From positions 1 through 64,000 of the forward strand of contig QPMI01000078.1 in the NCBI GenBank assembly GCA_004431415.1: DNA of 64,000 nucleotides, in the 5' to 3' direction. Each line of letters starts with the position of its first letter. Position 1 is the first letter of the stretch. The notes under the pieces were generated by a model, which saw only the letters and a program-made list of their open reading frames with translations, had not been told where the DNA came from and made no database searches. A program made the translations under genes and the position numbers. The stretch is from Cyanophora paradoxa CCMP329 (lineage: Eukaryota > Plantae > Glaucophyta). Shown in pieces: positions 1-35,102 of this stretch.

Positions 1-690
1 CGAAATTCAGCGCTTCGACAAGTACCAGAAGGTTTTCTTCCCGATGAAACTACGATGATCTCGTCATGAAGTGGGCGCGCGAGCGCGGCTGGATCAAGAC
101 GATGGAAGAGATCGAGAAGGAGAACCTGCTCGGCCGGCCGGCCGCTACGGGCAGACGACGAGAACCCCCAGGGGCTGCGCGCGGGCTACACCCCGACCTC
201 TCGCCCATGTCAACGCGCAGACGGCCAACATCAGCAGCGCCGTCAACAAGCCCTACGGCGCAACGACGTGGACTTCAGCCGGGCAACCGTTCGGGGCGAT
301 GCTCATGGATCAGGTCGGCACGCGCGGGCCCGCGCTGGCGACGGCGACGCCGTACGCGGACCAAACCTGCTGCCGGCCGTCGTGAATCCGGCCGTAGGAA
401 GCCGACCCTATGCGGATACCGCAACGTTAGGCTCGATTGCGGGCGCGGGCCTGGGAACCGTCGCCGGAATGGCAGGCACCGGTGAGCGCAGCCAGACCAC
501 GATTCAAACCGCCTTCCAGCTCTCGGAAGGGCACCGAGACCGCGCAGGCCACCCTCCTCCGCGAGACCAGCGCGCGCAAGCGGCAATGTACGAGCAAGCG
601 GCAAACGCCCTCCTCGCGGCGGCGGCAGCGGCGCGGCAGCGGCAGCGGCGCGCAGCGGCAGCGGCAGCGGCAGCGCAGCGGCGACGCTAA
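1..690 (+). CDS. Viral hypothetical protein, 5'-partial, frameshifted
   Basis: Overlapping ORFs 66-485, 71-385 and 268-690 join into one plausible protein (MKWARERGWIKTMEEIEKENLL...YEQAANALLAAAAAA). The stop at 688-690 overlaps the next gene's upstream motif. Confidence 0.55.
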
Positions 691-709
691 TTTCTGAAGC
701 ACGCGTAGC

Positions 710-1033
710 ATGCTGCGACGGAGGCGACGCTGGCGAGCAAATCGAGGCGCGCTGGGGCCGCTTCCTCGACCTGCTGGAGCCGGAGGCCAAGGAGCCGGGG
801 TGCGGCGCAGATCCAGTCGCTGCGCGGCATCGGGGCCACGGCGGTCATCGTTCTGTTCAGGAGGCACATCAACGCGGAGGCGGAATTGATCAAGGCGAAG
901 GACGACTCGGTTTTCGAGAGGCTGCCGCAGGAGTACGCCTCGGCCGTGCGCTCGCTCTTCTACGGCAGCGGCCCGAGCTGCGCGAGAAGCTCTGGCTTAC
1001 ATCGAGCTCTTCGTCGAGCTGACCTCGGAGTGA
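710..1033 (+). CDS. Viral hypothetical protein (~107 aa, frameshifted), resembling a small conserved NCLDV helical protein
   Basis: Reconstructed as ...ARWGRFLDLLEPE...LFRRHINAEAELIKAKDDSVFERLPQEYASAVRSLFY...LREKLW.YIELFVELTSE*. AATTTCT motif at 689-695. Confidence 0.5.
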
Positions 1034-1061
1034 AAAATATTTCTAAGGGCAGGCGTAAAGG

Positions 1062-1857
1062 ATGGACCCTCGGCGATGCTTGGCTTCGAGGCGCTGGCCG
1101 TGGACGGGCCGAACCCCGTGGGAATCCCGCAGCCCGGAAGAAGGGCCGCCCGCGAAGGAGGCAAGGAAAAGGGGAGAAGGCGCCGAAGGCCGACAGGATG
1201 GCGCTGCCGGGCGACGGGCCCGCGGTGCCGCCGACGGCGCCGAGCAAGGGCGCGGGCTTCAGCGTGCAGGAGCACATCGAAATGACGAAGAAGAAGGAGC
1301 AGAGCGTGAAAAAGGCGCTGGGAATCGACCTGCAGGAGCGGCCGCGGGACGAGGCGCAGGTGGACGTGGACGAGAAGAAGCAGGTCCTGCGACAGATCGC
1401 GCAGTACCGGCGCTCGTTCGGGGCGAGCTTACGTCCACGAAGAAGCTGAGCCTGGCCACGCCGCTGGACGAGCTGAAGGAAGAGTACGAGGAGATTCAGC
1501 GCGAGCTGAGCACGCGGGGTTCGCTGGAGGCGGCGCGCCTCTTTCTGATCGCGGGCATGCACTCGCTGGAGCACCTGAACAAGGCGTACGATCCGATCGG
1601 CCTGAAGCTCGACGGGCTCGGGCAGGCGACGCTCTCTTCGATGGACCAGGTGCAGCCGATCTTAGAGGAGCTGGTGATCAAGTACTCGCGCTACGTGACC
1701 CTGGGGCCGAGGCGCGCCTGGGATGGCCCTGGTGCAGACGGTGCTGGCGGTGCACGCGGCGAACGCGAACCCGGAGGTAATGAAGGAGGTGACGGAGGCG
1801 GCGGCCTCGACGGCGGCGGAGCCCAGGGCGGTGGGCGGCAAGTTCAACGGCCTTTGA
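1062..1857 (+). CDS. DUF5767-like conserved Nucleocytoviricota protein (frameshifted)
   Basis: SLEHLNKAYDPIGLKLDGLGQATLSSMDQVQPILEELVIKYSRYVTLGPEARLGMALV matches the family pattern LE.LN..YDP....LDG....D..FEEL..KY....PE..L. Recognised from memory, not searched. Confidence 0.7.
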
Positions 1858-1910
1858 GTGTAAACGCGTGTAATCAATTGCACCAAAAATTCACAATTTA
1901 TTCGTCCGAG

Positions 1911-2690
1911 CTACTGCATGGGGGCTGCGTACATAGACTCGGGGTTTAGGTAGGGCTCGAAATCGGCCTCGTTGTCGTAGGGCTTGAAGGCCAGCTCGGG
2001 GCGCGCCCGGCGAAGCGAAAGGCGCCGACCTTGCACTGCTGCACGGCGAGGAAGGACCACTTGAGGCCGAACTTGCCCTCGGGATGGCGTAGGCGGTGTC
2101 GATTTTAATGAGCGCCGCCACCAGGTCTCCGGTGCCGATGGTGGCGCGCTCGGTGATGAGGTAGTTGGACATGTCGACGACGGGCACGGTCTTGCGCTTG
2201 CCCGCCATCGTCTGGGTGCGGATGCGCATGTTGAGGTACTTGTAGAAGGCCTGGCCCGACTCCTTGTCGACCTTGATGCGCACGCTGGGGGTCTGCAGCA
2301 CCGAGATCTGATCCTTGGAGAGGGAGCGGCCGGGCGAGACCTTGAGCTTGGCCTGGTTCTGCTGCACGAACTCGCAGAATTTCGCGTCCAGGGCCTCCAG
2401 CAGCTTGAGGAACTCGTCCGCGGCTGGGTTCGTCTGGCCGTCGACGGCGCTGAGATCGGTGAGGTCCAGCGTGTAAAATCCGCCGTTTTCTTCCATGACG
2501 AAGGCCTTCTTCTCGTCGCTCCACGCCTTGCCTTGCTCTGTGTTGATGCACGGGTTGATCGTGACCATGGGCGGCGCGTACATCATGAGGCCCTGCAGGC
2601 CGTCGTACTTGGCCTTGATGCGGCCGGTGGCGTCGATCTCGAAGGCGAGCTTGGCGGGTCGATCTCGTTGGCGTTGCGGACGGTGGCCAT
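1911..2690 (-). CDS. Viral single-stranded DNA-binding protein (NCLDV / T7 gp2.5-like OB fold), frameshifted near both ends
   Basis: Contains YTLDL, EFLKLLEALDAKFCEFVQQN, IGTGDLVAALIKIDTAY and GKFGLKWSFLAVQ, plus an acidic-aromatic tail (YDNEADFEPY). AATAAA lies downstream at 1897-1902 on the minus strand. Confidence 0.75.
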
Positions 2691-2805
2691 GTTTGCGTTA
2701 GCTTAGAGTGTGCTTCAGCCTAGCGCTAGAAAATATTTAAGGGCGCCCCACCCGACTTCAGCTGACCTCGGGTGAGCGCTCAGGTGATTCAGGTAAAACA
2801 CGTGT

Positions 2806-3075
2806 TCAATTCACCATCAGATCCTCTACGACGGCTACACGAATCGAGCTAATCTTGAACCTGCCTACAATGCACTTCTCTCTCCACAGTACGATCTCGT
2901 TCTTGAGGGGGAGCAGTTGAATCCAATCATACTCATCGCCCTTGCGGTGCTCCGACGAAATGTCGCGAAGGAGCTTGCAGAAGTAGAACGTGTTTCGGTC
3001 GAACTCATCGTCGTATATGACGTATGCGAAGATGCCGAAGGTGAGACAGCAGGTGAAGTACGTGGGGATGCACAT
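2806..3075 (-). CDS. Viral hypothetical protein, 89 aa
   Basis: Intact ORF of non-repetitive composition with ATTTCT-like and CAGGTGA motif clusters nearby. Confidence 0.5.
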   Translation of the reverse strand: MCIPTYFTCCLTFGIFAYVIYDDEFDRNTFYFCKLLRDISSEHRKGDEYDWIQLLPLKNEIVLWREKCIVGRFKISSIRVAVVEDLMVN

Positions 3076-3337
3076 TCTTGATTTCTCTTGGCTTTGAAGT
3101 GTGAGGAGAGGGCGCGGCGGGGCTGCGGTTTTGAGGCCGTTCAGGTGAGGGTCAGGTGAGCGCTCAGCTGAGTTTCAGGTGAGGGCAACTTGAAAATTCG
3201 GCGTCATTTACGTCCGCGTCATTTACGTCAGCGTCATTTACGTCACGGAGTTGGGACTCGGCCCTGGCCCCCGGCCCAGGCCTCGCCCGTAAAAAAGGAC
3301 TTGGACTTGGCGCCATTTTCTAAAGCTCTGCTGTACC

Positions 3338-3986
3338 ATGGAGCCCGCTATCTCCCAGCTAGTCTCTCAGGGCGCCAAGCTCGACAAGGCCCTGAACATC
3401 TACCTTCAGCTGATCGAGCTGGCCTGGCCCGAGCCAATGATAGCTCAGGCCTGCAAATCGCTCCACGTGGCGTTCGATGCGCCGTTCTCAGGTGACCCGG
3501 ATCAGGTGACATCCTGGACCAAGGAGGAGATAAAGGCCGACTTCGAGGCGCTTTTCTCATTTATGAGCAAGAAGTATGCCGAAATCGAAGCAGCTAAGGC
3601 CTCAGCAGCCGAAGGCGGTGAAGCCCCAGCCGAAGGCCCTGCCGGCGACCAAGGCACCGAAGTTCAAGGCGCTGGGCCCCTTGCAGAGGGCGAAGGCCAA
3701 GGCGGACCTGCGACCGCGTAGGCCCAAGGACATAGCCAAGGAGGCAAGCGGCCACAGGCCGGACTGGCCGGCGCCGGCGCCCTACCGCTACCTCAAGCTG
3801 GACAAGAGCAACGATACCGGCTTCACCAGGAGGAGGTGGCCTGAGCCCCTCAGGTGGCTGGAGCCAAGGGAGATCAAGTCCGGAGGCGGTATCGAGCTAG
3901 CGCTAGCGCTGGGCGGCGGCGGCGGTGCAGACTTGGAGGAGCAGGCCCTGCTAGATACCATCAACTTGGGCAAGGTAGAGCTGTGA
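3338..3986 (+). CDS. Viral hypothetical protein(s): ORFs 3338-3721 and 3576-3986, either overlapping genes or one frameshifted gene
   Basis: ATTTTCTAA at 3315-3323 upstream of ATG 3338. A second TTTTCT at 3552-3557 precedes a basic Lys/Pro-rich ORF. Confidence 0.5.
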
Positions 3987-4650
3987 TATCTAGCTAGCTA
4001 GCGCTTGCTTAATTAACTCAACTGAAGTTACCTGACATTTACCTGAAGGGTTGCGGAGGTTACCGAAGGGTCGCGTCATTTACGTCAGCGTCATTTACGT
4101 CACGGAGTTTGCCGGCGACTCGGGACTCGGGCCCAACTTCTCCCGGTAAGTTCGAGACTTGGAAAAATAGGGTATCCCTATTACTTATCGTTATTATTAT
4201 TACTATTATCGTTATTCACATTGAATGAATGCTTAAATCTATAAAAGCTGTACCAGTATCGGTGGCTACTAGTACTAAGCTAGTAGTACTAAGTAGTACC
4301 AAGTAGTACTAAGTAGTACTACGTAGTACTAGCGGTACTAGTAGCTACTGGTCGTGACGAACTTACCGGGAGAAGTTGGGCCCGAGTCCCGAGTCGCCGG
4401 CAAACTCCGTGACGTAAATGACGCTGACGTAAATGACGCGACCCTTCAGGTTAATTAATTAAGCAAGCGCTAGCGCTAGCTAGCTAGATATCGATACCAC
4501 CTAGCTAGTAGCACTAGGACACTAGGACACTAGGACACCGGGGGTACCCCCGCCGAGTTCAAGTCTCGAACTTACCGGGAGAAGTTGGGCCCGAGTCCCG
4601 AGTCGCCGGCAAACTCCGTGACGTAAATGACGCGGACGTAAATGACGCAA
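3985..4650. repeat. Inverted-repeat control region with TGACGTAAATGACG arrays around an AT-rich core
   Basis: A 90-bp arm at 4065-4154 is the reverse complement of 4358-4447. A third copy lies at 4560-4649, outer arms at 3985-4016 and 4451-4492, and a partial copy at 3202-3253. Confidence 0.9.
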
Positions 4651-4716
4651 ATCCCATTGGAGCTACGTTCGCACACTCCGGACGCCTCCCACAATTTTCC
4701 AAGGTACCCAGCAAGC

Positions 4717-5004
4717 ATGGACTTCACCGATTGCGCAGGTATCAAGCAGGAGCCTGAGGACCTTCTCACCGCCGCCGCCTCGGCGCCCAAGCAGCGCCGC
4801 CGCCGCGGGCCCAAGTCCCTCTGCTCCGAGCCCGAGATCCTGGCGGCTCCGGCGCGCGGGCCGGAGACCGTGGACCTGACCCTGGAGGAGCCGGCGCGCG
4901 GCCCGCCGCGCCTTCTGATCCTTGCGGCGGCGGCGGCCGCGCTCTACTACGCCGCCCGGCGCCTGGGCCCGCAGCTCTCGGGCCTGGTCCGGAACCTTTT
5001 CTAA
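4717..5004 (+). CDS. Small viral protein with C-terminal transmembrane helix
   Basis: MDFTDCAG...LLILAAAAAALYYAARRL. AATTTTCC at 4693-4700. Confidence 0.6.
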   Translation: MDFTDCAGIKQEPEDLLTAAASAPKQRRRRGPKSLCSEPEILAAPARGPETVDLTLEEPARGPPRLLILAAAAAALYYAARRLGPQLSGLVRNLF

Positions 5005-5015
5005 GTCCCTCCTCA

Positions 5016-5356
5016 ATGGAGGCCCTGCTAGATCTCATGGCCTTTGCGCTGCCCATCTTCTTCCTGGTGGCCTCAGCCGCATGGAGCGCGAGGCGCGCCA
5101 GCCCGAGCGCGTCGAGCGCGGCCTCACCCCCGCAGAGCAGCGCAACCTCACCGAGTGGGACCTGGCGCTCATGGCCGGCCGCATGCTCGACGGCAACCGG
5201 CTCGAGCCGGGCCACCGCCTCAAGCTAGAGGACGGCGGCACGGCCCTCTGGGACGGCGAGGCCTGGAAGCACGATTCGACGGGCGAGCCGATGAAGCTGC
5301 TCGCCTCCGGCAACAAGTACTGGCGCGGCGACTCGATGGAGTTCCGGCGCCCGTGA
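5016..5356 (+). CDS. Small viral protein with N-terminal hydrophobic segment (frameshifted)
   Basis: MEALLDLMAFALPIFFLVASAAW joins EREARQPERV...WDGEAWKHD...EFRRP*. TTTTCT at 4997-5002. Confidence 0.55.
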
Positions 5357-5403
5357 TTGCTAGTGATTTTCTGGTCCCTCTTCTAACCTTCTACCAGCAA
5401 AGA

Positions 5404-5688
5404 ATGCCCGACCCTCGCCCGACCCCGCCGCAGGTGCCGAGAGCGCGGGCAGCTCGGACGAGTACTCCGAGCTCACGGATCCCGACCCCGACGAGCCCGG
5501 CGACGCCTTCGCGACGGAGAACGAGCGCTCCCTCATGCGCGTCTACGAGGCGCTGCGCGAGGCGATCTACTGGGAGGATCCCCGCCTGGGAACCCTGATG
5601 AACTTTGCAAAGTTCGCCGAGTTCATGTTCGCTATGACCGTGCCCTTCACCCGAGTCGTGCTCTGGGATAGGAACAGGAACTGGTAAA
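5404..5688 (+). CDS. Small viral hypothetical protein (frameshifted)
   Basis: Reconstructed as ...DAFATENERSLMRVYEALREAIYWEDPRLGTLMNFAKFAEFMFAMTVPFTRVVLWDRNRNW*. ATTTTCT at 5366-5372. Confidence 0.55.
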
Positions 5689-5714
5689 GGCATTGAATAC
5701 AACAGTACAGAGCC

Positions 5715-6087
5715 CTACGAGCTAGAGCTGCTATCGCCCGAGTCCAGGCGCGCCTTCTTGGCCTTGGAGCGGCGGAGGCGGGAGACGTACTGCAGGCGCA
5801 GGTTGCGCACTAGGAGCTCGCCGGCCGTGGTGCCCGGCAGCCCGGGAACCGAGTCCGTGGGCAGCAGCTGTCCCTCGCGTATCGCCTTGTACGTCTTGCG
5901 CTTGTTGAATGCAACCTTCTCCGTATCCTCCGCGACCGGGACTTCCAGCGCCAGCGTGCGCTTGGCCTTCTTGACGGAGACTGCGTTCGCACGCTCCAGC
6001 TTCACTCCGGGCTCCAGGGGGTAGGGCGACTGCGTTCGCCACCGGGTTCTCAGCGAAGGAAACACGGGGGGAAGAGCCGCCGCGCAT
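5715..6087 (-). CDS. Small basic viral protein (frameshifted near start)
   Basis: K/R-rich ORF 5715-6065. ATTTTCT on the minus strand at 6113-6119 upstream of ATG 6087. Confidence 0.55.
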
Positions 6088-6099
6088 GGTTCGCTCGCT

Positions 6100-6501
6100 T
6101 TACCTAGCCTTTAGAAAATAGTCGAGCTGGGCGCTCTGCAGGCGCGCGCCCTGGTAGGCGCCGCGCAGCTGCCACGCGAGCCAGATCGCAAGGAGCACCG
6201 CGGCGACGCCGGCGGCGATCTTGGCGTAGTGCCAGCCCTTCATCGCAAGCTCCGGCACGGCCGCAACCGCCTGCCCGACCTTCACGCCCGCGGCGCCCGT
6301 CCGATCGATTCCCGTCAGCGTGCTGCCGAGTGCGCCCGCGGCCACGTCGGCCCAGGGAAGCTTGCCGTCGTTCTTTAGGATGAGCTCGTTGTTCTTGCGC
6401 TCGATCGTCGTGCTGATCGCCGCGGCCAGGTTGAAGCTCGGCGGCGGCTGCGCGCTCTTCGGTCCGAAGACCTTGGTCAGCACGGCGTCCACCCAGCCCA
6501 T
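6100..6501 (-). CDS. Viral membrane protein, 133 aa
   Basis: MGWVDAVLTKVFG...KIAAGVAAVLLAIWLAWQLRG, with a clear TM helix. Confidence 0.65.
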   Translation of the reverse strand: MGWVDAVLTKVFGPKSAQPPPSFNLAAAISTTIERKNNELILKNDGKLPWADVAAGALGSTLTGIDRTGAAGVKVGQAVAAVPELAMKGWHYAKIAAGVAAVLLAIWLAWQLRGAYQGARLQSAQLDYFLKAR

Positions 6502-6527
6502 CTTTGACCTAGACTTCGAAAAACTAT

Positions 6528-7003
6528 CTAAATGACCAGGCCGCGCAGGTACCAGACCATCAGGAGCGAGCCGCCCAGCGCCACCAGCAGCGGCAGGTGC
6601 CCGTCCACGGCGCGCCGCATGCGGTTGTCGCACAGCTCCTGGCAGCTCAGCCGGTTGGCCTCGTCGAAGTAGGCGCTCACGGCGTAGGGGCGGCCGGCCG
6701 GCGGGTGCAGCCCCCGGCCCAGGCACGGGTAGGCCTCCGCCTGCCGCCGCGCGGCCAGCGCCGCCGTCGCCGCGTGCGCCGCCTCCCTCTGCCCGGCGCG
6801 ATCGCCACGAGGGGCAGCGCCCCACGCTCCTGCCCTTGCCCGCCCCTTGATCGTTTTCAGCGACGGCGGCGCGGGATCCGCCGCCTTCACCCTGGGCCCT
6901 CCGCCGCCGCCCCGCCCTTAGCCCTCGCCGCCTCGCCGATCTTGCTGCATCGCGAATCCGATTTGAACACGGTGCACAGCAGCTTCTCTACCGCGCTCGA
7001 CAT
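6528..7003 (-). CDS. Viral protein with Cys residues and C-terminal TM (frameshifted)
   Basis: MSSAVEKLLCTVFKSDSRC...SCQELCDNR...LPLLVALGGSLLMVWYLRGLVI*. Upstream motif at 7027-7033. Confidence 0.55.
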
Positions 7004-7034
7004 CTTCGAACGTGTAACGAGAATGAAGAAAATT

Positions 7035-7286
7035 TAAAAGGGAACGCCAACGGACTCGGAACTCGGAAAAGGGGGAGGGGAGAATGAACTTTGAAAAGTT
7101 AGCGCCCGGCGGGGCGCATGCCGGCCGCCGCCTGCGAGGCGCCGCCGGGGCGTAGAGGGACTTGGCGGCGTAGCCGAAGCCCACGCCTATGACCGCCGAG
7201 GCCGTGGGGGTGCCGCCGAGGAGCCAGGTGAGGGTCGCGGCCAGCGCTCCTAGCGAGTAGTGGGCAGGATAAGCTTCGAAGGCCAT
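7035..7286 (-). CDS. Small viral membrane protein (3' end uncertain)
   Basis: MAFEAYPAHYSLGALAATLTWLLGGTPTASAVIGVGFGYAAKSLY. Upstream motif at 7313-7321. Confidence 0.5.
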
Positions 7287-7335
7287 CGCGGGACCGAATT
7301 GAGGGAGGGTTGAGAAAAAATACCGCCTCGGGGCC

Positions 7336-9200
7336 TCAGTGGTGCAGGTGCCGGAAGCGCGCGTTGTCCTCGGCCTCCTCGCGCGCCGCCTGCTCCTCCG
7401 CCGCGTCGATCTCCGCCCGCGAGGCCTCCCGCGCCGCGGCCGACGCGTAGTCCTTGAGCACGGGCACGCGCCGGTAGCTGTAGCCGAGGCCCTTCGCCAG
7501 CCCCGCCGACTCCGCCTCGAACGCCCGCCAGCGCTCCGAGGCCTCCGCCCCGGCGATCTGGCCGGCGCGGAAGCCGGAGTCCAGCTCGGCGCGGAAGGCG
7601 ATGGTGGCCTGCAGGCGCTGGGCCCAGAGGGCCTGGCGCCGCTCCTCCGCCTCGCGCGCCTGGCGCGCCGCCAGCGCCCGCCGCTCGGCCTCCTGCTGGG
7701 CCCCGAAGCCCTGGATCGCGGTGAGGACGGCGCCGGGGCCGGGAGGGGGCTGGGGCCGTCGGCGCTCGCGGGGAGGCCGAGCTCCCGTAGCCGCTCGGGC
7801 CCGCGCCGCCGTTCGTCGGGTACCCTGCCCTTGGATCAGGAGGGGGCGGGGGAGGGGGGTACGGGAGGGAAGGCGGGGGGTACGCGGGGCCGGACCTGGC
7901 GCGGCAGCATCTCGTCGATGCGCTGCTGGCCGGGGCGCTGCTGGGGGCCGTGGCGGGGGCTGGGGCGGGAGGAAGGCCGGCGCCGAGTTGCGGGTGCGCT
8001 TGCCCTTGCCCTTGGTGTGGGGCTTGACGAGGAAGGGCCCGACGTCGGGCGCCGGGTCCTTGAACTGGGCGACGGGGATCGCGATCGCCTCCAGCGCCGG
8101 CTGGCTCTCGCCGAGGGAGAGCGGGGCCTTGGGGACGATGCCGCGGATGTAGGTCTGCCAGACGCCGCCGAGCTTGTAGGAGTAGGGGCGGCACCAGGAG
8201 CCGAAGCCGGCGAGGGTCTCGTCCAGCCGGCCGTTCTCGATGTCGGCGCCGACGGCGGCGGAGGTGTCCGGGCCCTCCGTGCGCGCGATGTACTCGACGA
8301 TGCCCGCGACGCTCGTCATCCAGCCCTCCGTCTCCGAGCCGACGAGGAAGGTGGTGGGGTCGACGACGCAGTGGGTGATGATGAAGCGGGTGAGGGGCAG
8401 GAGGCCGTCTCCTGCCAGAAGGCGAGGCGCTTCTCCCGCAGCCACACCGGCTCGAAGGCCTGGATGCAGGAGGCCTGGCGGCCACCTGCGGCGCGGGCGA
8501 CGTTAGCGCGTACGACGTCGGGACGGGCGGGGAAGGTGCGCGGCTTCGAATCCAGCGGCTCCCCGCGAAGCTGCCTGCGGCCCAGTGAGCGTGCTGCGAG
8601 CGGGAGGTGGGAGGGATTGGGCGGGCGGGCCTGCGTCCAGCGCTGAAACGTAGCTCCACTGATGCTATCCGCGATGCGCGTAGCCCGCGACTGGCTGCGG
8701 ACAAGGGAGGGCTTAGCTAGGACAAGAACGGGTGTGGGGCGCGGGGCTGGAGGCGCGGGGAGGCGAGCCGGAGCCGCCGAATCGATGCGCGGGCTTGAGA
8801 ACGAGATCTAGAAGCGTGCGCAAGTCGCCGCGAACGTCGGCTCGAGTTGCGGAAGGCGCGGCGGCCAATCTCGGCACCTGCTCAGAGACCAAATGTCAGC
8901 GGACGCGGGCGAATCGAGCGCGAGGTTGCGGGGCATGTTCTAGGTGCTAAATGCAAGGGATAGAGCGGCAAGAGAGCGAGCTGGCACCTGCGGGATGCGG
9001 CGGAGTGCTCCGGCTCGGGCGCCATCGAGCTTTCGAAGGTCCGCGGCCGGCGCGAGCGACCCTGCGCGTGGCGGCGTGAGTGCGGCGTCGAGAGAGCTTT
9101 CCAGCGCCCAAAATCTGAGGTCCGGAGCTAGCCGTGGTGCGGAGAAAGAGGTTGCGAAGTGAGGCGCACCTCCGAATCGAAAGGAGCGAGGCGGCGGCTC
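7336..9200 (-). CDS. Multi-exon hypothetical protein embedded in the viral gene array; 5' end uncertain
   Basis: Coding core FEPVWLREKRLAFWQET...TRFIITHCVVDPTT...YKLGGVWQTYIRGI and a coiled-coil C-terminus. It is interrupted by short GT/GC-AG segments with CTAAC/CTGAC/CTCAC branch sites (e.g. ~7830-7896, ~8487-8541, ~8576-8630). Confidence 0.6.
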
Positions 9201-9629
9201 TCCGGGCTGAGCGGAATGCAAGCTAGTGCCTCTGGCAAGTGCTGCAAGGAGCGCTGGGCCCGGGCGCTGCGAGATGCGCTGCCCGGGCGCTTTTTTTCGG
9301 GTTGGGGTACTGTGTTTTGAGTCGAAACACGTGGAGCAACCGCGTGAGCCCAAAACTTTCTGAGCTTAGGAGCAAAGGCGGTCGAGCGCTCGGCCGCGCA
9401 AGCTAGCTCCGGCGCGCTCTGCCTTCTCTCTACACGTGTCGCATTCACGTGCGCTCAAAACTTTCTAAGCTTCGGTCAAGCAAGGGCTAGCGCTTCCGAA
9501 GTTCTACGCGCGCGCCTCCCCGTCCGCCGGGCCGACGGTCTGCGCGTCACATCGTCCGCTGCGCCAAGAAGGAGAGATCAAGACGGTGTCAACCGGGTCT
9601 AGTTGAGCGCTTAAGGTCGGACCAAAGCC

Positions 9630-9765
9630 TGTCCCGACCCTCCCAGATCTTTAAATTAATATCTCAGAAGGTCGAGACAGCCGCTGAGCAGTCCGGATCC
9701 AGACGGACCAGAGCCTGTCCCGACCCTCCCAGATCTTTAAATTAATATCTCAGAAGGTCGAGACA
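9630..9765. repeat. Two copies of a 50-bp imperfect palindrome with AT-rich centre
   Basis: TGTCCCGACCCTCCCAGATCTTTAAATTAATATCTCAGAAGGTCGAGACA at 9630-9679 and 9716-9765. Confidence 0.9.
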
Positions 9766-9855
9766 GCAGTCCAGACGTCGACTATAGCTAGCCAACAGAC
9801 GTTGACTAGCCTAGTAGATCTAGAATTTTCCAAGCCTAGCTATAGAGAGACGACC

Positions 9856-12800
9856 ATGGCAACCGGACGCGTGTCTCTCGACGTCGACGCCTTCCTGGCC
9901 CGTATGCCCGGGCCCGGGGTACAGCAGATAGATCTGAGCGAGCAGGAGTGCAGCTTTTTCGTTCGATTCCCTCTCGTCGAAGTCCAGAAGGCCTGCAGCC
10001 CGACCCTGGGGACGGCTTTCTGCGTCTTCCACCCGCCCTGCATCACCCCAGCCACTTCTCGGGTGCCGAGGATGAGACGAGCACCGCGGCAGCCTGCGCC
10101 TTTGCAACCAAGTTCGGAGGCTTCACTTTCTCTCGCCCCTTGGATAATGGATTCAAGGCTGCCTACGTCCTACAGAGCCCGGAGGCTTGCGATCTCATGG
10201 CATGGTTCTTTGGGAGCTCGAGCGGCCTGGAGCTCGGTGTGGATGGCACGGGGGGCTACGTTCTGCGGGGGCCGGCGCCCGGGCCGCGAGCGGAGCTCCT
10301 CCCCACTCCATCCAGAAGCTCGGCGCCCGCGCTAAGCCCATCCCGGAGCCGGGCGCTCTCCTGGATTCGAGCCCAAGCCTGCCGGCCTTGGAGCGGCTCC
10401 TGGACCGCCTGCGCAAGAACAAGGCGGTGAGGGACGAGATCTGGAAGGCGGGGCAGAGCTGCGCGCGGACCTTGGCCTGCACGACGCCCGCCGCGTTCAG
10501 CACCTTGGAGTCGAGCCCGACGGGTCCATCACCCTCGTCCTGGGCGGGAGTCAGCCGGGGGCGCCGGCGGCTCGAATCTCCATCCAGGCGCACGGTATTG
10601 AAGTCGAGCTCGAGGGGAGGGGACCGGAGGGGAGTCGGGCAGCGTGGCACAGACCCGCTATGTGACCGATCCCTCGCAGCCTGTCGCCTTCGACATTGCC
10701 CTCCCCTCCCTCCTGATCGCGCTCGAGTCGACGGGCCTGGAGGCTTGCGTCAATGCAGTGGATGAACGCCACCTCTCGTGCAAGATCCTTACCTCCGCAT
10801 TCGGGGCGCTGGAGCAGAACCCGAGATCCGCTCAGCCGCAGGTCGACGTCATCTGCTCGGGACTCAACACGGGGAAGACGCAGGCGCTGATCGATGCGTA
10901 CCTGGACCCGGCCCTTGCAGGCGGCTGGCGAGTGATCCTCGTGACTTGCCGCCGGGCCTTCTCCCGCGACCTCAAGCGTCGCATTGATGCTGCGGAGTTG
11001 TCAAAGGACGCCGTGCTTTACATGGACATCAAGAAGCCACCGGAGAGCTCAAAGGGATCGCATGGCAAGTGGGGCTTCCGCCATGAGGAGTGCAGGTGCG
11101 TCGTCATCACATGGGACTCGCTGCACAAGGTGCTCGAGGACTGGGAGGGCTGGTCGACGGCGCCGCTACTGGTCGTGCTGGACGAGCTCTCCTCCCTCAC
11201 GAAGCACCTCACCTCGAGCGGCACCCTCGAGCCCACCGGCCTGCACCTAGGTATGCGGTCAGTGCCTCGAAACGCGCGCTGCGTGGGCCTATGGCGCGGC
11301 GTGATGAAGGCATCGCGCATCGTGGCGATGGACGGCTTCGTTCGGTCGGTCGATCTCGCGTACCTGGCAGAGTCGGCGCAGGAGGTCGGGGCGCGCCTGG
11401 GGCTCCTGTACAACTCGCATCGCACCTGCGACTGGAAGATGCGCGTGTCAGACAGCCCGGCGCACGTCGAGGCGGACATCATGGCGCTGTGCAGACCGGG
11501 CGCTGCGGGCGATGATCATTGCAGAGACGCCGGCCAAGGCGATCGAGATGCAGGAGAAGATTGCGAAGCAGGCGCTGGAGCAGCTCAGCCTGGGCGGCGC
11601 TCAGTACGTGACTCAGCTCGAGGCAGGGCCCGAGGACGGCAGCGGCGCACCGTTCACGATCGGGCTCATCGTTGGGCAGGCCAAGGAGAAGAGCGTGCGC
11701 TTCACGAACGACGGCCCAGTGCGCATCGTGTCGATCGATGTGTCTGAGGAGGGCGCGTACAAGGCCTGCGACGTGCTCATCGCAACTTCCGCGCTCGGGG
11801 CAGGCGTGGACTTTTCGGACGCGCACTTTGACAAGGTCTACGGCGTGTTCCAGGCAGAGCCCGCGCAGCTGGAGGCGGACGACATCGTGCAGCTGCTGTT
11901 TCGAGTCAGAAGGCTGCGCAAACGCAGCACGCCCGACGGAGAGCACCTGCTCGTCGCCGTGCGCAAGAACCGGACGCCCTCGGTTGCGGTCGGCGCGGCG
12001 GCTGCGCACTGGCGTGAGAGCGACGACGACGAGAGCTCGGACGACATGCAGCGCTACCTGGACCTGAAGGCTAGCCACCGCGGGAGCCGCCGCGCCGGCA
12101 TGCCCACTCGGCGCCTCGCAGTGGCAGCGCGCCTGCGGCTGATGTCGACCTGCGCGCTGATGAACGTGCAAGTCACGGAGGATCAAAACCCGAGCGGACC
12201 GAAGCAGGAGAAGGAGCAGCGGCTGCGCGAGATCAGGAGCGTGCTGGAGGCGGGCGCGCTGGAGCCCGTCGATCTGTGGAGCACGGTGCTGGCCTGGAGG
12301 CAGTCCCGCGAGTCTCTCGCTAAGCTGGACATCGAGAAGGTTGCTTCGCTTGCTCGCACGTCGATCGCCGCGTTCCTGGCCAAGGATCCGAGCGAGCTGA
12401 CCGAAGGAGACGTCGCCTGGATGTGGGATTCGTTCTACTCCATCCCGCTCACTGCCGTGGTCACGCTGGTGCTGAAGCATGGCGCGGACGTTGCCGAGAT
12501 CGTGCCTACTGCTGAGCGCCTCAAGGTATCGAAGGTCGTCGCGCTGTTCAAGAAACTCTTCGGCTGGCGGGGGTATGGAAAGCTCGCGGGGCGTGCTCTG
12601 TGGTCGGACGAAGCCTACGCGGCCCTGGCGTCGCCGGAGGGTCGGGAGGCGTACGCGGCTCTGCAGAGTCTGGACGAGCGCGCGCCCCGCTTCGATGCAG
12701 CGGACGGTGAGAAGAAGCGGCTCTCGCAGCAGTCTTGGCAAGTCATCAAGTACCTGCTGGAGAAGTACCTCGGAGTGAGACGCGCTTTCTCCGACGCGGA

Positions 12801-12972
12801 CGGAGGGCAAATGGGCAGCCGAAAGCGACGCTACATCACGTGGGAGGAAGACATGCTCGACGACGCAGTAGAGCGCCAGGCTAAGCAGGCAAGGGCAGGC
12901 ATGGCGCCAAGCTTCCCAGAGGTTTACAACGTTTTCTCCGACTGCTATGCTCTCATTCACAGGCGCGTGTGA
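9856..12972 (+). CDS. Herpesvirus UL9-like origin-binding SF2 helicase (frameshifts at ~10050, ~10300, ~10450-10640, ~11505)
   Basis: Motif I SGLNTGKT, Ia VILVTCRRAFSRDL, Ib VVITWDSLHKV, II VVLDELSSL, III RIVAMDG, V DVLIATSALGAGVDF and VI QLLFRVRRL. These are colinear with UL9 motifs GSGKT / VSCRRSF / VQVESLHRV / LDEVMS / IIAMDA / QSLGRVR. Confidence 0.88.
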
Positions 12973-13073
12973 TTGTCGGATGTCACAGTGTGGACTTCGC
13001 GAACGGGATGCGCGTGCCAGTGTGTAAATACGAACGTGCGAATTCAAGTGACGTCATGCATATGATCAATGAA

Positions 13074-13757
13074 TGTCTCGACCTTTTGAGATATTAATTT
13101 AAAGATCTGGGAGGGTCGGGACATTGCGAGGGCGGACGAGAGTGAGGGCATGCACTCTCTATGTGTCCCGACCTTTTCTGAACAACTCATGATTGCCGTA
13201 TCATCGATCTGCATTTACTCACTTCGTTCTCTGTCGCTTGCACATGCGCGGTGTGGGATTACTAATTAGATCTAGTCTCCCTAGCCCTCTGCGGCCGCCT
13301 TCCTGCCCCCTGCAAAGAGCAGCTCAACCAAATCCTGTGGGGTCTGATTCATTGCAGACTCGCCTTCCCCGCCTGGGCCTGAGCTACACCAAGCTACGGT
13401 GAGTCCGACCAAGAGACGTGTCCGGACCCTCCCTACTTTCTTTATAGATTATTGGAAAGGTCCGGACACTAGAGGAGGGAGGGCGTACATAAGTAGTCTG
13501 ACCAAGAGACGTGTCCCGACCCTCCCAGATCTTTAAATTAATATCTGAGAGGGTCGAGACACTAGAGGAGGGCGTACATAAGTAGTCTGACCAAGAGACG
13601 TGTCCCGACCCTCCCAGATCTTTAAATTAATATCTGAGAGGGTCGAGACACTAGAGGAGGGCGTACATAAGTAGTCTGACCAAGAGACGTGTCCCGACCC
13701 TCCCAGATCTTTAAATTAATATCTGAGAGGGTCGGGACACTAGAGGAGGGCGTACAA
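13074..13757. repeat. Same palindrome family: one inverted copy (13074-13123) and a tandem array of 89-bp units (13402-13757)
   Basis: ACCAAGAGAC recurs at 13408 (diverged unit), 13501, 13590 and 13679. Each unit holds a GTGTCCCGACCCTC...GAGGGTCGRGACAC hairpin. Confidence 0.92.
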
Positions 13758-14375
13758 CTTAAACTCGCGCAGCGCCGCCTGCTCCTCGCTGAGGTTCTCT
13801 GACTTCATTCGATCGCTGTAGGGCTCGGGCGGAGTTCCAGCCTTCACGTGCATCCAAAATAGATGTAAGCACCGCCGCATGAGCTCGATGTACCTCTCGT
13901 CCCGTCTGACGTACCACGTTTGCACGCGCAGAGGCGTGAAACAGAAAAGTTCGGCCCAGTCGCGGCCCGTTATGTCCAGCAGGCCCTGAAGTTGAGTCAT
14001 GTAATAGGTAGGAACGCTATCGTAAAGTTCGCCCTTGTAAGGGCATTTCACCTCTAAAATCCTATCATTTCCTATCAGTCCGTCGGGGCTCCCGGCGAGG
14101 AACGGCATTTCTTTGTGTTCGTGCAGTCCAGTGTGTTGAATGTCCACGTTATCGTTCAGTGCCTTGTAGATAGAGACCGCGAGGGGCTCGTAGTCGTGCC
14201 CGTAGGTTAGGGCAGGGTTGTCAAAGTTGTTTTCCTCCGCGATCCCGCTCAGCTCCGCCCAGAGGCGGGCCCTGGATTTCCACGGGTTGATGCCGCACGC
14301 GGCGGCAAAGTTCGAGGCGGTTAGCTTTTCGCGGCGCGCAGCGTGCCACGCCGCGCTCCCCTGTTGTAGGTCCAT
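13740..14375 (-). CDS. YqaJ-like viral recombinase / lambda-type exonuclease
   Basis: Motifs QGSAAWHAARREKLTASNF, GHDYEPLA, FLAGSPDGL, LEVKCPY and YYMTQLQGLL. Intact ORF starting MDLQQGS. Confidence 0.93.
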   Translation of the reverse strand: MDLQQGSAAWHAARREKLTASNFAAACGINPWKSRARLWAELSGIAEENNFDNPALTYGHDYEPLAVSIYKALNDNVDIQHTGLHEHKEMPFLAGSPDGLIGNDRILEVKCPYKGELYDSVPTYYMTQLQGLLDITGRDWAELFCFTPLRVQTWYVRRDERYIELMRRCLHLFWMHVKAGTPPEPYSDRMKSENLSEEQAALREFKLYALL

Positions 14376-14427
14376 AGCTCGTAGCCTCGCAGTAGCGTTT
14401 AGAATTTCTCGTTGTGTGCAATTGCAA

Positions 14428-15129
14428 ATGTCGGATGACGAAGATTCGAGCCCGGTCCCGCAGATGGACGAAGATTCGAGCCCCGAAGAGTTCCTGACTC
14501 GCGTTAGGGGCCTGGCCCATTGGATACGAGATAAGTTCAAGGAGGGGATGCGAAATCGGATAGGAACGTCGTCCTTTCCGCTGAGGGGCTAGCCCCTGTT
14601 GCAGCCCAGGGGCTGCGGGATACCGTGAGGCTCGCCCCCCATCCTATGATCGGAACTGGGACTTCAGCAGTGTGCTTACGTCCCTGTACGTGGCGCTGAT
14701 GTCGCCTAGAAGCCGCGTGGCCCGTCTGCCGAACGAGGCCAGATTGAAGATCATGAACTTCTTACTCGCAGGTAGAGACGGGCGCGAAGGCGATGTGATC
14801 AATGGGCTTCGAAATGAGATACAGTGGTACATGCGTACAGGCGAAGGCGGTGTCCGACAGTACGACGGCTCACGGTACACAGAGCTCGAGATTCCACGCG
14901 AGCTCGTACCCCGGAGCTGGCAAGAGCTTCCGCCCGCCCCACCCCCGCCCCCGCCTACGTATCCCCCTTTGACTCGAGGCCCCCCATCAACGAGCGCAAG
15001 CGACTGCGCGACTGGCTGCAGGACGATCGAAACCGTCTGCCGGGTGAGGCAAAGGTCGGCACTATACCCCCAGAGGAGGAGGCGTACCCCGTTTTCGAGA
15101 ACAATCGCCTGACGTGGAGGTGGACGTGA
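14428..15129 (+). CDS. Viral hypothetical protein, paralogue 1 (frameshifted)
   Basis: MSDDEDSSP...EEFLTRVRGLAHWIRDKF...SRVARLPNEARLKIMNFL...ERKRLRDWLQDDRNRLPGEAKV. Confidence 0.6.
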
Positions 15130-15167
15130 TAGGGGGTACGGGTAGATATTCTCAGCGAGCCGCGAGC

Positions 15168-15916
15168 ATGGCGCGGACACGCGAGTCCGACGTGCTGTAC
15201 AACAACGGCCCATCATCGGTGAGATCCTACAGCGGACCGTGGACTTGGACGACGCACAATCCGATCTGCACCGGCGGCGATGGGCGATGGGCCCCGATTC
15301 GGGGAGCGGATCGCCCGGGGAGAACTTTATGGAACGCGTGCTGTACCTCGTGCGCTGGATACGAGATAAGTTTAACGACGATCAAGAGTTTCCAGATCAA
15401 AACACCATCGGCGCAGCACGTTTCATGGGTATGACGATCAATCCACGCAATCATGGCAGGCGAGAACGCAGGGATCTGAACGGCGATTGGGCGGACCTAC
15501 AAGCACTGTGGATGGCCTTTGCGAACCGCAAGAGCCAGATCCTCGCTCTGCCCGCGCGGGTGCAGGAGCGTATCATTGACTTTGTGGCACCGTGGCGCTT
15601 CGAGAGCCTTGACCCGCAGACTGTGCAGCCCGCTTCCTCAGACGACTGCGAAACGCCTTCTACCACCTGGCGCTGAGCGACGGCCAGTACTTCACGCCTC
15701 AGAGAATCGATCACGGTGAATTCGGTATACCCCCGAGTGGGCAAACTTTGGCATGGTACCCCCGCCGCGGCCCTCCTCTACGGCCCCCCCTCCCCCTCAC
15801 CTGAGCAGCGTGAGTCACTCAAGCGTCAGAGGGAGGTACGCGAATGGATGGACGACACCAGTCACTGGGTACAGGGCGAGGCCGAGTTACGCAAGTTCGC
15901 TAGGCTCGGGCAGTAA
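15168..15916 (+). CDS. Viral hypothetical protein, paralogue 2 (frameshifted)
   Basis: SPGENFMERVLYLVRWIRDKF...SQILALPARVQERIIDFV...RQREVREWMDDTSHWVQGEAEL shares three motif blocks with paralogue 1. Confidence 0.6.
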
Positions 15917-16299
15917 CCGCAGGGGGTACAGCATTCAGTTAGAGTCCGAGCCTAGTTAGAGGCCGGGAGGCCCCCGGGGGGTACATTGGACGTGTTAGTC
16001 CCCCTGCCTCCCCGAATGCAATATAACAATGCAACCTCCGCAACGCGTGACTCATCAACCTCCGAGGGTTAACAATGCATTGACAGCGAAGGGGCAAGCT
16101 CGAGAGCTCGACCCTTGGCAAGAGCCCACATATATATAACCCTAGGCCTGGCAATGGGTTAATTTCCTTTCCCCGAACCCGGCTGACGCGCACAGCAAAT
16201 CGGGGATATCAGAGGCCATTTATTCAATATATGCGATTCGCGTTGCAATCGGCTGATCATGAAGATTTTAGTAGAAGAGATCATGATAGAGATCCGCGG

Positions 16300-19200
16300 G
16301 GGGCCGTTACAGACCCATGACCGGGATCCGGAGCTCGAGGAACGTCAAGAAGGTCAATGTGAAGATGCTGATCCCGAAACGCGAGAGGCTCTGCGCGAAA
16401 TATTAAAGCGATCTCATTACACGAGCTCGAGGCTATGTAGCTAACGGCGATCTTAATTTCCCATTTCGGAATTCGAATTCGGACTCTAGATCTTATCCGA
16501 TATGCCACGCCATGATGCATAGCTTAGTAGAGTGATGCAAGGGACGCACGAAAGGTGCTCCCATGGCCAAGCTCGAAGCGCTACTGAGGTAGGGAATGTA
16601 GTTTAGGTAGTATCCGGAGGCGGTCGACGCCACAGGTGTCCACGTAAAAGCCTGCGCATGCGCGCGCGTGCGCACGCAATTACATAGGCCCGTCGACTTC
16701 GTTCGCAATGGATGAATGTCGTCGAGCAAATTAGCAATATACACTAGTACTAGTAGTACTATATACATCTTGGTGTTGATATATCGATCATGGTATGTGC
16801 GCATGCGCACGTTTTTGAAGACAAACGTCGGGTATCCGTCAAGCTCGACGCGAACATTGTACTGCGTAGAATGGCGCGGTCAAGAGACTCTGAGAGCTCG
16901 AGACCTATTTACAGAAGCGATCACGAGCTTTAATTTGCTCTGAGCTCGAGATTCATGATCATGATCGAACCGGCGTATTGACTCGGAAGAGGAGCTGTCG
17001 ATGCCGGCGAGTGGTAATAGCGGACGGGGCTACAGTGCGCAGGAACAAATCAATATTAATATTAGCCATGCGACGGAATAGAGTGCTGAGTGTCAGGATG
17101 CGCACTAAATTCGAGGACTACCCGCGGCCCAGCCGCCGACTGCACGATCGACGCGCGCACGCCCCTGGCTTCCGATTTGGCACCAGCATCGTCTGCAATA
17201 AAGACTTTGATTTCGCCCCCGGCCTGACAGCGTCACAGCGTTAATTATAATTTCGACAAGCTTAAGAGGCCACACCAAGGTGAAGTTGCGATTAACATTG
17301 AACGTTTTAGTGCGCATGTGCACGCGCACGCGGCGCGCAAGCGCACCGCGAGGACCGTCCGAACGGCCTCCACGAGGGCGCCCCCAAGACTAAGGGAAAC
17401 GTTGCTCGATCCATCCTGCACGCGCACGCGCATGATCAATCGATATCGATATCGGGTGGTTCAACGGTTGAAATAGGATGATAGCATGATTCACGAAAAT
17501 CACATGTGCATTGATTTTATAATTAGAGGTATTTACATGGAGAATCTCTCCAACATCATGGCATGCATTTCAAATAGATGGGAACCACAAAGTTCGCTAG
17601 CAAGTTTTTATTTTCGATTTTGTAATTCATTCGATTAACTGTTATAAATTAACGTTGTCTGATAGACTTTGAGTTATGAGAACATTGGGAAGATCACCTG
17701 TTTAGCGTACAGCAACGGGCTTCCGATGTCGAGCGAGTAGACCGCAATGCCATTCTCCTGCATTGCGAAGCAGGAGGTTCGGTCGGGTCCAGCAGTGGAC
17801 AGAGCTAGCTATAGAGTAGAACCACTGCACGTGTACATGTCAAACACTAAAACAAAGTCACGCGCACGATGGACTTCGTTAAAGACGAAACGTTGCGCTG
17901 CGCATACGGGCAATTCAATAACTACTCATGTATGCGGTTCAAAACTCAGACAATCGTTCTGATTAAATTACCGAAAAGCTTTCCACTGATATGCTTTGGG
18001 ATTCGTCCTGCGCATGTAAAGCGGCGGATCCGAATAAGTTGAAGAATCGTAGTGCATATATGCCCGACGTCGACGGTCTTCCATATATTGCAATTGACTT
18101 TCGAATTTCGTAATGCGCCACTGTACATGTACATGTAGCTTGCAATTGTGCATATGCATATGTATATATATATATATTATGTCCATGTAGCGGCAGTTGG
18201 ATAAGGCATACGCAGCGGCGGGCGCACCAAAGCGGAGCTCGAGGCGCTTGCAGCTGGATCCGGAGTCGGGCTGCGCATCCACGCGCACGTGCACGTGCAC
18301 GTGATCATGAGTATTTCGAAAGTGGCAGACAGTGGCCGACCGGGATATATATATCGACGCGATCATGAGAGCGTCACGGCGTACTTATACGCGTACCTCG
18401 CTATCGGGGAGGGTGTCGGCGTCGGAGAGCTCGCAATCAACGGGGTAGAAGACGGGGGCGGGGTTGGAGAGGGGGTGGCGGATGGGCTGGGGCTGGGCGA
18501 CGGGCTGGGGCTGGGCGACGGGCTGGGGCTGGGCGACGGGCTGGGGGTCGGGCAGCTGCCGAGGGCGACCTGACAGAGAGTAATGATGTTGAAGTTGAAC
18601 ATTTGGCTGATCATGGTCATTCAAATCCCGGGCGGGCGCAAAATGCATGCGCGCGTGCACGTCAATTTATATAATTAGGCGGGAGCGCTTGCGGGATATA
18701 TGCATGTATAAATAGGCTCTGGCCCGTGCAAAGTTGCGGGTCGCATGCATATGAGTTATAAACAACATTAGTGTGCGCATTGGGGCCTGCGCATGCATGC
18801 CTGTTGGCCGCCAACTGCAGCTCGTATTGCCCGGCGGAGAGCGCGACGAGGCTCAGCGACGTTGCGTTGCGCCAATTTAACCTGCGCGTGCCGCAGTGCG
18901 TTATAATTAGGGCAAAAACGTCGTTAACGACCCGGCCGCCATAGGCCGGTAATCATGCATATTATTTTCGAGCTCGAGCTTGCAATTGAAATCATTGAAT
19001 TCAGGTTTCATATTATAATTAGCTACAGGGATAAAAGAGAAAACAGGCGCACCAACTACCGGGCGCTTGCGAGAAGAGCGTCACATTGGCATCTTGATCT
19101 GCATGGGGACGATTGCCAAGTTCATTCCAAATTTGTAACGAAGAGGGCCGAAGAGCTCGAGGGCAGTGATCATGAAGGGCGATCGCGAACAGTGAAAGGG

Positions 19201-20094
19201 GACACACAGGGTTTGCAAAAATTCCTTGCCGACCCATATATGCATGAATATTGCCGCATGCACTAGCATCTAGATCTAGATCTAGAGCTCTGTACGTACC
19301 CGCAATGATGAATTGCATGCTTAACGGTGGATTAGGATTCGCGTAACTGACGGAAATGTTGTACATCCCCGAGGCCGGCACAGTGATCCAGTAAAAGTAC
19401 ACATCACCAGCATACACGTCACCTTCGAGCATGCGTAAAAAACATTAAAAACTTGATCATGATCAGCTGTAGTACGTGGCCATATATATATATATATATA
19501 TATATGACGGCGCCGGCGGCTCGCGATCGAGCTCGACCGCGAGCCTCGGCCGCGGAGCGCGCACATATGTTGCACCAGGTTTGGTCAAGCGGGTCGGAAG
19601 TGTCCTCAAAGCACGACAGGGTACCATTGTAGACCTCCGCTTTATTCCTGAATTTGCCGAGGTTGCATCTGGGTGCTATGGTTGAATCGTGCTCTAAGGG
19701 GTTCTGCGCAAATAAAACGTGGTCGCGCGCGCGCCGTCAGAGTTAACATTGCGATCGATATATATACATATATAGCGGTACGCCCGCTATCGTAGTATGG
19801 TGGTGCGCGATCGCTGATCATGAATGCGTATGCGAATTCGAATATTAATGCGGATGCGACCGCGAATTCGGACTTCGGGATTTTTGGAAGCTATACACTA
19901 TAGCTAGCGCTTGCCTTGGTTACATGGCCGGCGACAGGAACGTATTTCGTGTAGTTCCCGCCGTACATGCGCGTGGTCGTGATGCACGTGCCGTCCGTAT
20001 ACGAAGCCGAATACAGCAGCTGGCTCGGGTGGCAGGCTGCGACGAATGCCATGCACATCCCGACGCCGAACAATACACGGAGCGCGTTCGACAT
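16300..20094 (-). CDS. Multi-exon secreted protein with signal peptide, CBM6-like segment and (Ser-Pro)n linker
   Basis: Signal peptide [21 protein letters not shown]; exon [19 protein letters not shown]; (SP)n at ~18400-18560; CGCAG/TGCAG acceptors; AATAAA on the minus strand near 16220. Exon structure only partly reconstructed. Confidence 0.55.
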
Positions 20095-35028: not shown

Positions 35029-35102
35029 AAGAGGCTTCGCCTGAAAGAGGCTTCGCCTGATTATTTACAACGGCTAAAAAACTACGCCTACAGTATAGCC
35101 TA

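Follow-up and report, generated by a model that had tools for sequence, protein, structure and literature searches.

The first 64,000 nucleotides of contig QPMI01000078.1 (assembly GCA_004431415.1, Cyanophora paradoxa CCMP329; hereafter the window) open with a compact array of virus-like genes, and the locus raises the question of what kind of virus this is and in what state it persists. An earlier note had read positions 1..15920 as an endogenous small DNA virus combining genes of nucleocytoplasmic large DNA viruses (NCLDVs, Nucleocytoviricota) with a herpes-like initiation and recombination kit. What we have directly observed is the gene content of the element, a contig depth corresponding to ~30–60 copies, a helicase that reads as one open frame, a sharply defined right end, and 12 spliceosomal introns on the antisense strand. 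We read the element best as the provirus of a dwarf nucleocytovirus which depends on the nucleus and whose initiator helicase is likely silenced by antisense RNA. Taken as a whole, we consider it fairly probable that the 16 kb seen here are the right part of a multi-copy integrated virus with a giant-virus-type capsid gene, a UL9-like helicase and a YqaJ nuclease, which likely replicates in the nucleus via host polymerase and is likely dormant through a spliced antisense RNA over the helicase.

Gene content, copy number and right end

From base 1 to about 15,900 the locus is a compact array of short open reading frames (ORFs), codon-like on both strands. We have scanned 30 ORFs against Pfam and found three matches above the curated cut-off: DUF5767 in ORF 1059-1946 (36.3 bits, cut-off 26.9), Herpes_ori_bp in ORF 10602-11744 (28.9 bits, cut-off 20), and YqaJ in the minus-strand ORF 13743-14588 (98.6 bits, cut-off 22). 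The DUF5767-like protein and the lambda-type exonuclease of the earlier note are thereby confirmed, the latter as YqaJ. No polymerase or transcription gene is seen among the visible ORFs of the 16 kb, and Rfam gives 0 matches in positions 1-20000.

A capsid gene has been found in a sister copy, outside the window. The gene model P0035, retrieved with ORF1 as the query, fuses a Capsid_N domain to ORF1, so that the capsid gene lies directly upstream of ORF1 in that copy. The full-length capsid of 456 amino acids (P0047) matches Pfam with 32.2 bits (cut-off 24) and aligns end to end with NCLDV capsids at 21–23% identity. Among 1.84 billion representatives, the capsid search returned 17 matches, namely seven family members, seven NCLDV-type capsids (25–29%) and three unrelated repeat proteins. 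Thus, an NCLDV-type double-jelly-roll capsid stands beside ORF1 in the sister copy; together with the multi-copy family, this bears out the endogenous small virus related to Nucleocytoviricota. The AF2 model of the capsid part is too low in quality to use (pLDDT 31), and PDB sequence searches with the capsid and the candidate single-strand DNA-binding protein (SSB) gave nothing below E 0.05. ORF1 itself was considered as VLTF3 and rejected, its full-length copies having no such Pfam match.

The homologues of the element are concentrated in one eukaryote proteome, which holds all 12 clusters of the helicase family (31 members, 11 scaffolds), all 13 clusters of the ORF1 family (31 members, 12 scaffolds) and 19 of the 21 SSB clusters (45 members, 19 scaffolds). 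On six scaffolds, the three genes are paired by adjacent gene numbers. The scaffolds of this proteome are named in the same style as those of Cyanophora paradoxa in PMC10120064, which makes this glaucophyte the likely host. The helicases of the copies are 46–100% identical (67–72% for the subfamilies P0006–P0008), which means diverged subfamilies with open frames, and three capsid types occur in the family. Two SSB homologues of 89% and 69% identity (P0017 and P0022) lie on 3.2–3.4-kb contigs from ENA and Logan, so relatives are present outside the one proteome. In another copy, the gene model P0004 fuses the 6103-6504 protein with the helicase, a hint at rearranged gene order.

Contig depth tells the same story. 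For single contigs of the element it is 2,373–4,501 against 75.9 for the flank in run X2, and 669–1,013 against 19.6 in run X4, both DNA-type; that is about 30–60 times the flank, depth being a rough measure. This excess is in line with the number of gene models, and no free virus is required to explain it. The extra copies and excess coverage that the earlier note had proposed to look for are therefore present, with sister genes on 11–19 scaffolds. The last genes (14.4–15.2 kb) reach only about 8–13 fold flank depth and are thus likely variable cargo.

The frameshifts that were checked have turned out to be single-base assembly errors. The best 12 of 88 assembly indels (up to 2655) and six in the helicase are single-base differences from high-depth short-read contigs; the six are absent from these contigs, and with N at these places the helicase becomes one open frame of 1,040 codons from 9856. 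Tens of copies apparently look intact.

The right end lies at ~16,130, beyond the 15,920 of the earlier note. Single-copy contigs start at 16107 and 16109 with 0 mismatches, and since 31-letter words were used for matching, the last shared base is at about 16,136–16,138. These contigs, from two DNA-type runs, span the junction near 16 kb without mismatch, which argues against the chimeric join that the note had wished to see tested. The TA run after the CA at 16,130 is seemingly common to other copies. An element ending in CA fits the rule of rve-type (TG...CA) integrases, and this suggests insertion into TA runs by such an integrase.

Replication genes and palindromes

In herpesviruses, UL9, ICP8 and UL12 constitute the origin and recombination system. 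The element indeed encodes a UL9-like superfamily 2 (SF2) helicase: besides the Herpes_ori_bp match, blocks that we assign to motifs I, Ia, II, III, V and VI can be recognised and line up with UL9 of herpes simplex virus (HSV), and the family profile finds HSV UL9 in PDB at E 1.9e-4. The SF2 helicase forms the C-terminal part of a larger protein. The N-terminal ~300 amino acids are conserved with a 46–49% identical paralogue, and by motif only, they contain no acidic motif (conserved DxD/DxE) of archaeo-eukaryotic primases (AEP).

The palindromic repeats reported before are also present, as six copies of a 50-nt AT-centred imperfect palindrome plus a degenerate one. The likeness to the herpesvirus system hence consists of a homologous helicase and AT-centred palindromes. 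On the other hand, the herpes UL9 box is not in the palindromes of the element, and the capsid lineage and the SSB family are different: Herpesvirales have an HK97-fold capsid and an ICP8-type SSB, while the capsid here is of the double-jelly-roll type and the SSB candidate is DUF5871/DUF2738-like.

The SSB assignment stands in part. The 1911-2690 protein matches Nucleocytoviricota clusters at 0.97 and 0.95, some of them with DUF5871/DUF2738, at a recognition value below the threshold of the tool; we take DUF2738 to be the T7-like SSB. The in-register match to T7 gp2.5 is weak and not significant (hhalign E 0.24), that to the Enc34 SSB has E 0.41, and phage tblastn with the SSB gave no match. 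As for the OB fold claimed earlier, the AF2 model is unusable (pLDDT 37) and fold searches were blank.

The herpes-like kit had been presented as an unusual combination, which does not hold, as the same genes are found in mriyaviruses, SmDNAV, mimivirus as well as in African swine fever virus (ASFV). UL9-like SF2 helicases are reported for a subset of Yaraviridae, mimivirus R8 and ASFV pF1055L (PMC11253617), and SmDNAV combines a UL9-like helicase with YqaJ and a T7-like SSB (10.64898/2026.08.29.747986). The replication kit is native to Nucleocytoviricota, not herpes-derived.

A spliced RNA antisense to the helicase

Twelve introns of 49–117 nt, all GT...YAG on the minus strand and most with a branch-point-like motif, lie between 10409 and 12199 opposite the helicase gene. 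They are seen in four RNA-type runs from three studies (12/12 in X15, at least 11/12 in X16, 11/12 in X17, 12/12 in X19), and none of them in the DNA-type runs X2 and X4 or the untyped run X1. Unspliced cover of the last intron in X19 is minor (91.6 vs 978). The RNA is covered from 9677-9723 to 13097-13116, that is, from palindrome to palindrome; outside the interval the cover is 0 and 0 in X19, and 28 and 42 in X17 against about 250–280 inside. As contigs also break at repeats, these ends are only a hint. The RNA contains both DNA variants at 11,432-11,506, which means that transcription involves more than one class of copies. We also considered, and rejected, a protein encoded by the spliced RNA, whose longest ORF has 269 codons from stop to stop and 235 from Met.

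The splice sites were compared with 2,000 synonymous shuffles. In the spliced zone, the antisense strand has 17 strong donors against 11.4 expected (P 0.007), 21 branch points against 15.0 (P 0.014) and 12 acceptors against 7.5 (P 0.025), where the zone and the patterns were picked after the introns were known and P is uncorrected. No comparable excess is seen in 15 further coding stretches.

A perfect palindrome, TGACGTCA, lies at 13049-13056, and we take it to be CRE-like. It sits past the helicase stop and before the inverted palindrome, close to where the antisense RNA likely has its 5' end.

Proposed replication and dormancy

In the proposed mechanism, the helicase, with help from the SSB, would attach to the AT-centred palindromes and melt them. 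Copying of the viral DNA in the nucleus would fall to the polymerase and primase of the host, as we infer from the lack of a visible polymerase and of AEP motifs in the helicase; YqaJ and SSB would support recombination, and a TG...CA-type integrase would have placed the copies into TA runs. From near 13,100, the minus strand would be transcribed by host Pol II; the spliceosome would cut this RNA at sites that mostly arise from the codons of the helicase itself, and the product would block sense transcription or feed RNA interference (RNAi) and methylation. By antisense interference or RNAi, the RNA thus likely keeps the virus dormant. The likely host is reported to have homologues of RNA-dependent RNA polymerase (RdRP) and antisense-biased small RNAs (PMC3700990), and its virus-derived genes to be methylated and silent (PMC12344493).

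Several points weigh against this reading. For the virus itself, the capsid is linked to the element through an automatically built gene model in a different copy rather than at this locus, and the left end is outside the visible DNA, the element consisting of 16 kb visible and at least about 2 kb further upstream. Of the virion module proposed to lie upstream, the capsid gene has been found in a sister copy, and the rest has not been seen: there is no Pfam match for an A32-like packaging ATPase in 1-16130, no Pfam or PHROG match for VLTF2, VLTF3, RuvC or Mriya_48 among the visible ORFs, and no integrase in the visible 16 kb. Five HUH-like motifs occur across six frames of the 16 kb, 0 of them in an inferred coding frame. 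The palindromes, putative origins, could instead be promoter or 3'-end signals, flanking both helicase and nuclease. For the RNA, the RNA-type runs are guesses ('RNA?') kept as contigs, in which the strand follows from the splice sites only and no start, end or level is readable. The main X15 contig exits the element at 12,935 into unrelated sequence, a possible host-promoter fusion. Over the whole helicase gene, 23 antisense donors are observed against 21.2 expected from the shuffles, so that they mostly follow protein sequence and codon usage, and avoidance of splice sites on the sense strand is weak in the helicase and not found in the 15 other stretches.

Accordingly, the same virus might carry an antisense RNA that is incidental, arising from a cryptic promoter or read-through, spliced wherever codons rich in G or C at the third position (GC3) make sites, and regulating nothing. 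This explanation, which concerns the RNA only, is a serious possibility to which we give somewhat more than one chance in three. It would account for the whole-gene donor count, for donors that often sit on a Tyr, Asp or His codon with Leu or a similar residue after it, for acceptors that often sit on CTG/CTA, for the missing long ORF, and for the second antisense intron at 6476-6548. It accounts less well for an RNA that is bounded by palindromes, recurs in three studies and carries two copy variants, or for the post hoc excess of donors, branch points and acceptors in the spliced zone. Helicase RNA contigs are also about 800–2,900 deep against 7–31 over SSB or nuclease in X15 and X16, which is a hint in the same direction.

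Relation to known viruses

Among the viruses most like the element are the Mriyaviricetes, including Yaraviridae with SF2_hel and Gamadviridae with a T7-like SSB (PMC11253617). Shared with them are the NCLDV-type double-jelly-roll capsid, the UL9-like SF2 helicase with an N-terminal extension, the likely T7-like SSB, a PD-(D/E)XK nuclease, and no polymerase seen. In contrast to them, the element has no HUH in the visible half and, by motif, lacks the intact N-terminal AEP motifs of the Yaraviridae SF2_hel; it is integrated in tens of copies with a defined end, while integration genes are reported absent from mriyaviruses (10.64898/2026.06.19.733378); and it has DUF5767, not mentioned in the main text of PMC11253617. 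Mriyavirus genomes are 35–45 kb in size and without DNA polymerase. The element appears to work like a mriyavirus, but its membership is unproven, as any HUH, VLTF or ATPase gene would have to lie in the left part and the AEP motif test was negative.

SmDNAV ('Ariadnavirales') resembles the element in its UL9-like helicase, OB-fold SSB (a candidate here), YqaJ, dependence on the nucleus (likely here) and lack of DNA or RNA polymerase (as far as visible here), and differs in genomes of about 200 kb with intact AEP primase, PCNA and TFIIB (10.64898/2026.08.29.747986). The Zoravirus groups VC102, VC134 and VC218 of NCLDV-like Polinton-like viruses (PLVs) are likewise small elements with NCLDV-related capsids, and have integrases (10.64898/2026.06.19.733378); their Mriya48, HUH and integrase are not seen in the visible part of the element, and no close sequence relative was found.

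The element could therefore be a member of these Zoravirus groups or of Yaraviridae rather than a separate lineage, which we regard as somewhat unlikely. The groups are 20–45 kb in size with NCLDV-related capsids, rve integrases, frequent in VC102 and VC218, would fit the CA end (10.64898/2026.06.19.733378), and some Yaraviridae have UL9-like helicases (PMC11253617). Against membership, the inferred coding frames of the visible 16 kb show no HUH motif, no AEP motif was found either, and searches by capsid gave no relative in IMG/VR or JGI metagenome contigs. In a quick tree of 42 rows, the three family capsids sit on a branch of length 3.49 without a reliable sister among 39 other NCLDV-type capsids, no named mriyavirus or Zora reference being included. 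IMG/VR scans with the helicase, the SSB alignment, the capsid, the capsid alignment, the palindrome and DUF5767, as well as two JGI metagenome scans, found no relative by a method that needs short exact words and misses distant kin; the nuclease had one IMG/VR match at 27%. Searches with 19 element proteins and the SSB and helicase profiles gave no homologue in 331 ORFs from 14 NCLDV contigs.

Endogenous viruses have been reported in Cyanophora paradoxa, with 366 capsid hits (PMC10120064), and a glaucophyte catalogue lists 156 elements with Herpes_ori_bp in 0 (PMC12220804). These PLVs and giant-virus insertions (also PMC12344493) share with the element a likely common host and double-jelly-roll capsids, although the six capsids listed in PMC10120064 differ from P0047 as compared by eye, not aligned. 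In the open-access literature we have found no description of the element family or its antisense RNA, and supplementary files may already contain the capsid.

A stronger proposal would see here a separate deep lineage of integrating, reactivatable dwarf nucleocytoviruses with a latency switch of their own, a non-coding RNA with many introns that starts at a palindromic element and runs back over the initiator helicase, with synonymous sites under selection. It would be the protist-virus counterpart of the latency-associated transcript of HSV, as an RNA that is spliced and runs antisense to an essential early gene would act like that transcript. We consider it unlikely as a whole.

It is very improbable that the element is no autonomous small virus but a piece of a large giant-virus insertion multiplied by segmental duplication. 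Its left end and total size are indeed outside the visible DNA, and the likely host is reported to carry endogenous elements of giant viruses (PMC12344493); yet the multi-copy sequence ends sharply with single-copy DNA beyond, the copies are diverged subfamilies with open frames and three capsid types, and the 16 kb lack polymerase and transcription genes. Still less credible is that the palindrome-bounded helicase cassette (9630-13123) is a mobile element of its own inside the virus, for although inverted 50-nt arms of 98% complementarity flank it and the antisense RNA covers the same interval, its depth is near that of the left flank (2,373–2,402 vs 2,049 in X2, 669–838 vs 628 in X4), implying no separate amplification, the same palindrome occurs in the tandem array beside the nuclease, and there is no transposase.

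Other features of the window

The remaining features of the element are listed in Table 1. The hydrophobic-segment ORFs in 5715..8400 are likely virion membrane or core proteins, and the repeat block at 3985-4650 could serve as an origin or shared promoter, or mark a terminus-to-terminus junction. TGACGT-type arrays occur in its spacer and at 3196-3249. Each of the tandem genes at 14427-15916 shows by eye an F-box-like LP motif, with no Pfam match.

Table 1 Features of the element in the window
Feature	Position	Strand	Basis and remarks
ORF1, C-terminal half of a conserved ~370-aa protein	1..690	+	Family search; follows major capsid gene directly in sister copy
Small protein	698..1033	+	No family match; corresponds to C-terminal part of P0046
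DUF5767 protein	1071..1860	+	Pfam; ends approximate, several single-base assembly indels
Likely NCLDV-type SSB (DUF5871/DUF2738-like)	1911..2690	-	Feature match
Small gene, differs between copies	2806..3075	-	Copy comparison
Accessory ORF	3338..3986	+	No family match; preceded by TGACGT-type repeat array
Non-coding block with a perfect 90-nt inverted repeat (4065-4154 / 4358-4447), an AT-rich low-complexity spacer between its arms, and a third copy at 4560-4648	3985..4650	.	Repeat search
Three short ORFs	4717..5687	+	No family match
Five ORFs, three with hydrophobic segments	5715..8400	-	No family match above cut-off
GT-AG intron of second antisense RNA	6476..6548	+	Present in X15, X16; absent in X2, X4; opposite minus-strand gene block
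Two 50-nt AT-centred palindromes	9630..9765	+	Upstream of helicase
Spliced antisense RNA, 12 GT-AG introns	9677..13116	-	Short-read contig joints; ends approximate
UL9-like SF2 helicase, 1,040 codons	9856..12972	+	Pfam, alignment, profile; read through six single-base assembly indels
Palindrome, inverted orientation	13074..13123	-	100 nt past helicase stop; antisense RNA cover ends here
Tandem array of an 89-nt unit with three full palindromes and a degenerate one	13420..13739	+	Abuts nuclease stop
YqaJ / lambda-type exonuclease-recombinase	13740..14375	-	Pfam
Two related short genes in tandem	14427..15916	+	Local score 55 vs maximum 51 in 500 shuffles; contigs shallower than core
Right end	16100..16138	.	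Multi-copy sequence stops in CA at 16,130, then TA run; single-copy host DNA beyond

In the host flank, an intron-rich gene at 53500-57000 is likely a host RNA-dependent RNA polymerase, as it carries a DxDGD motif and matches RdRP weakly in Pfam (E 0.32). The flank also contains two tandem duplications, 32670-35032 (1.19 kb, 99.6%) and 44560-50157 (1.87 kb, 92%), and an uninterrupted minus-strand ORF of 384 codons without family match (38297-39451), possibly from another mobile element.

Significance

Overall, the gene kit is less surprising than at first reading, and the noteworthy part is the divergent capsid, the spliced antisense RNA, and copies that number in the tens and are apparently intact. 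Two practical warnings follow from this locus: a transcriptome match to an endogenous virus gene can stem from antisense RNA, and an intact provirus can seem dead because of frameshifts in a long-read assembly. The finding touches two open questions, the latency of integrated protist DNA viruses and the small ancestors of giant viruses. It offers what is likely a culturable alga with tens of apparently intact copies, and a capsid lineage without close relative in the collections searched. With one defined RNA lying against the one replication initiator, latency becomes experimentally testable.

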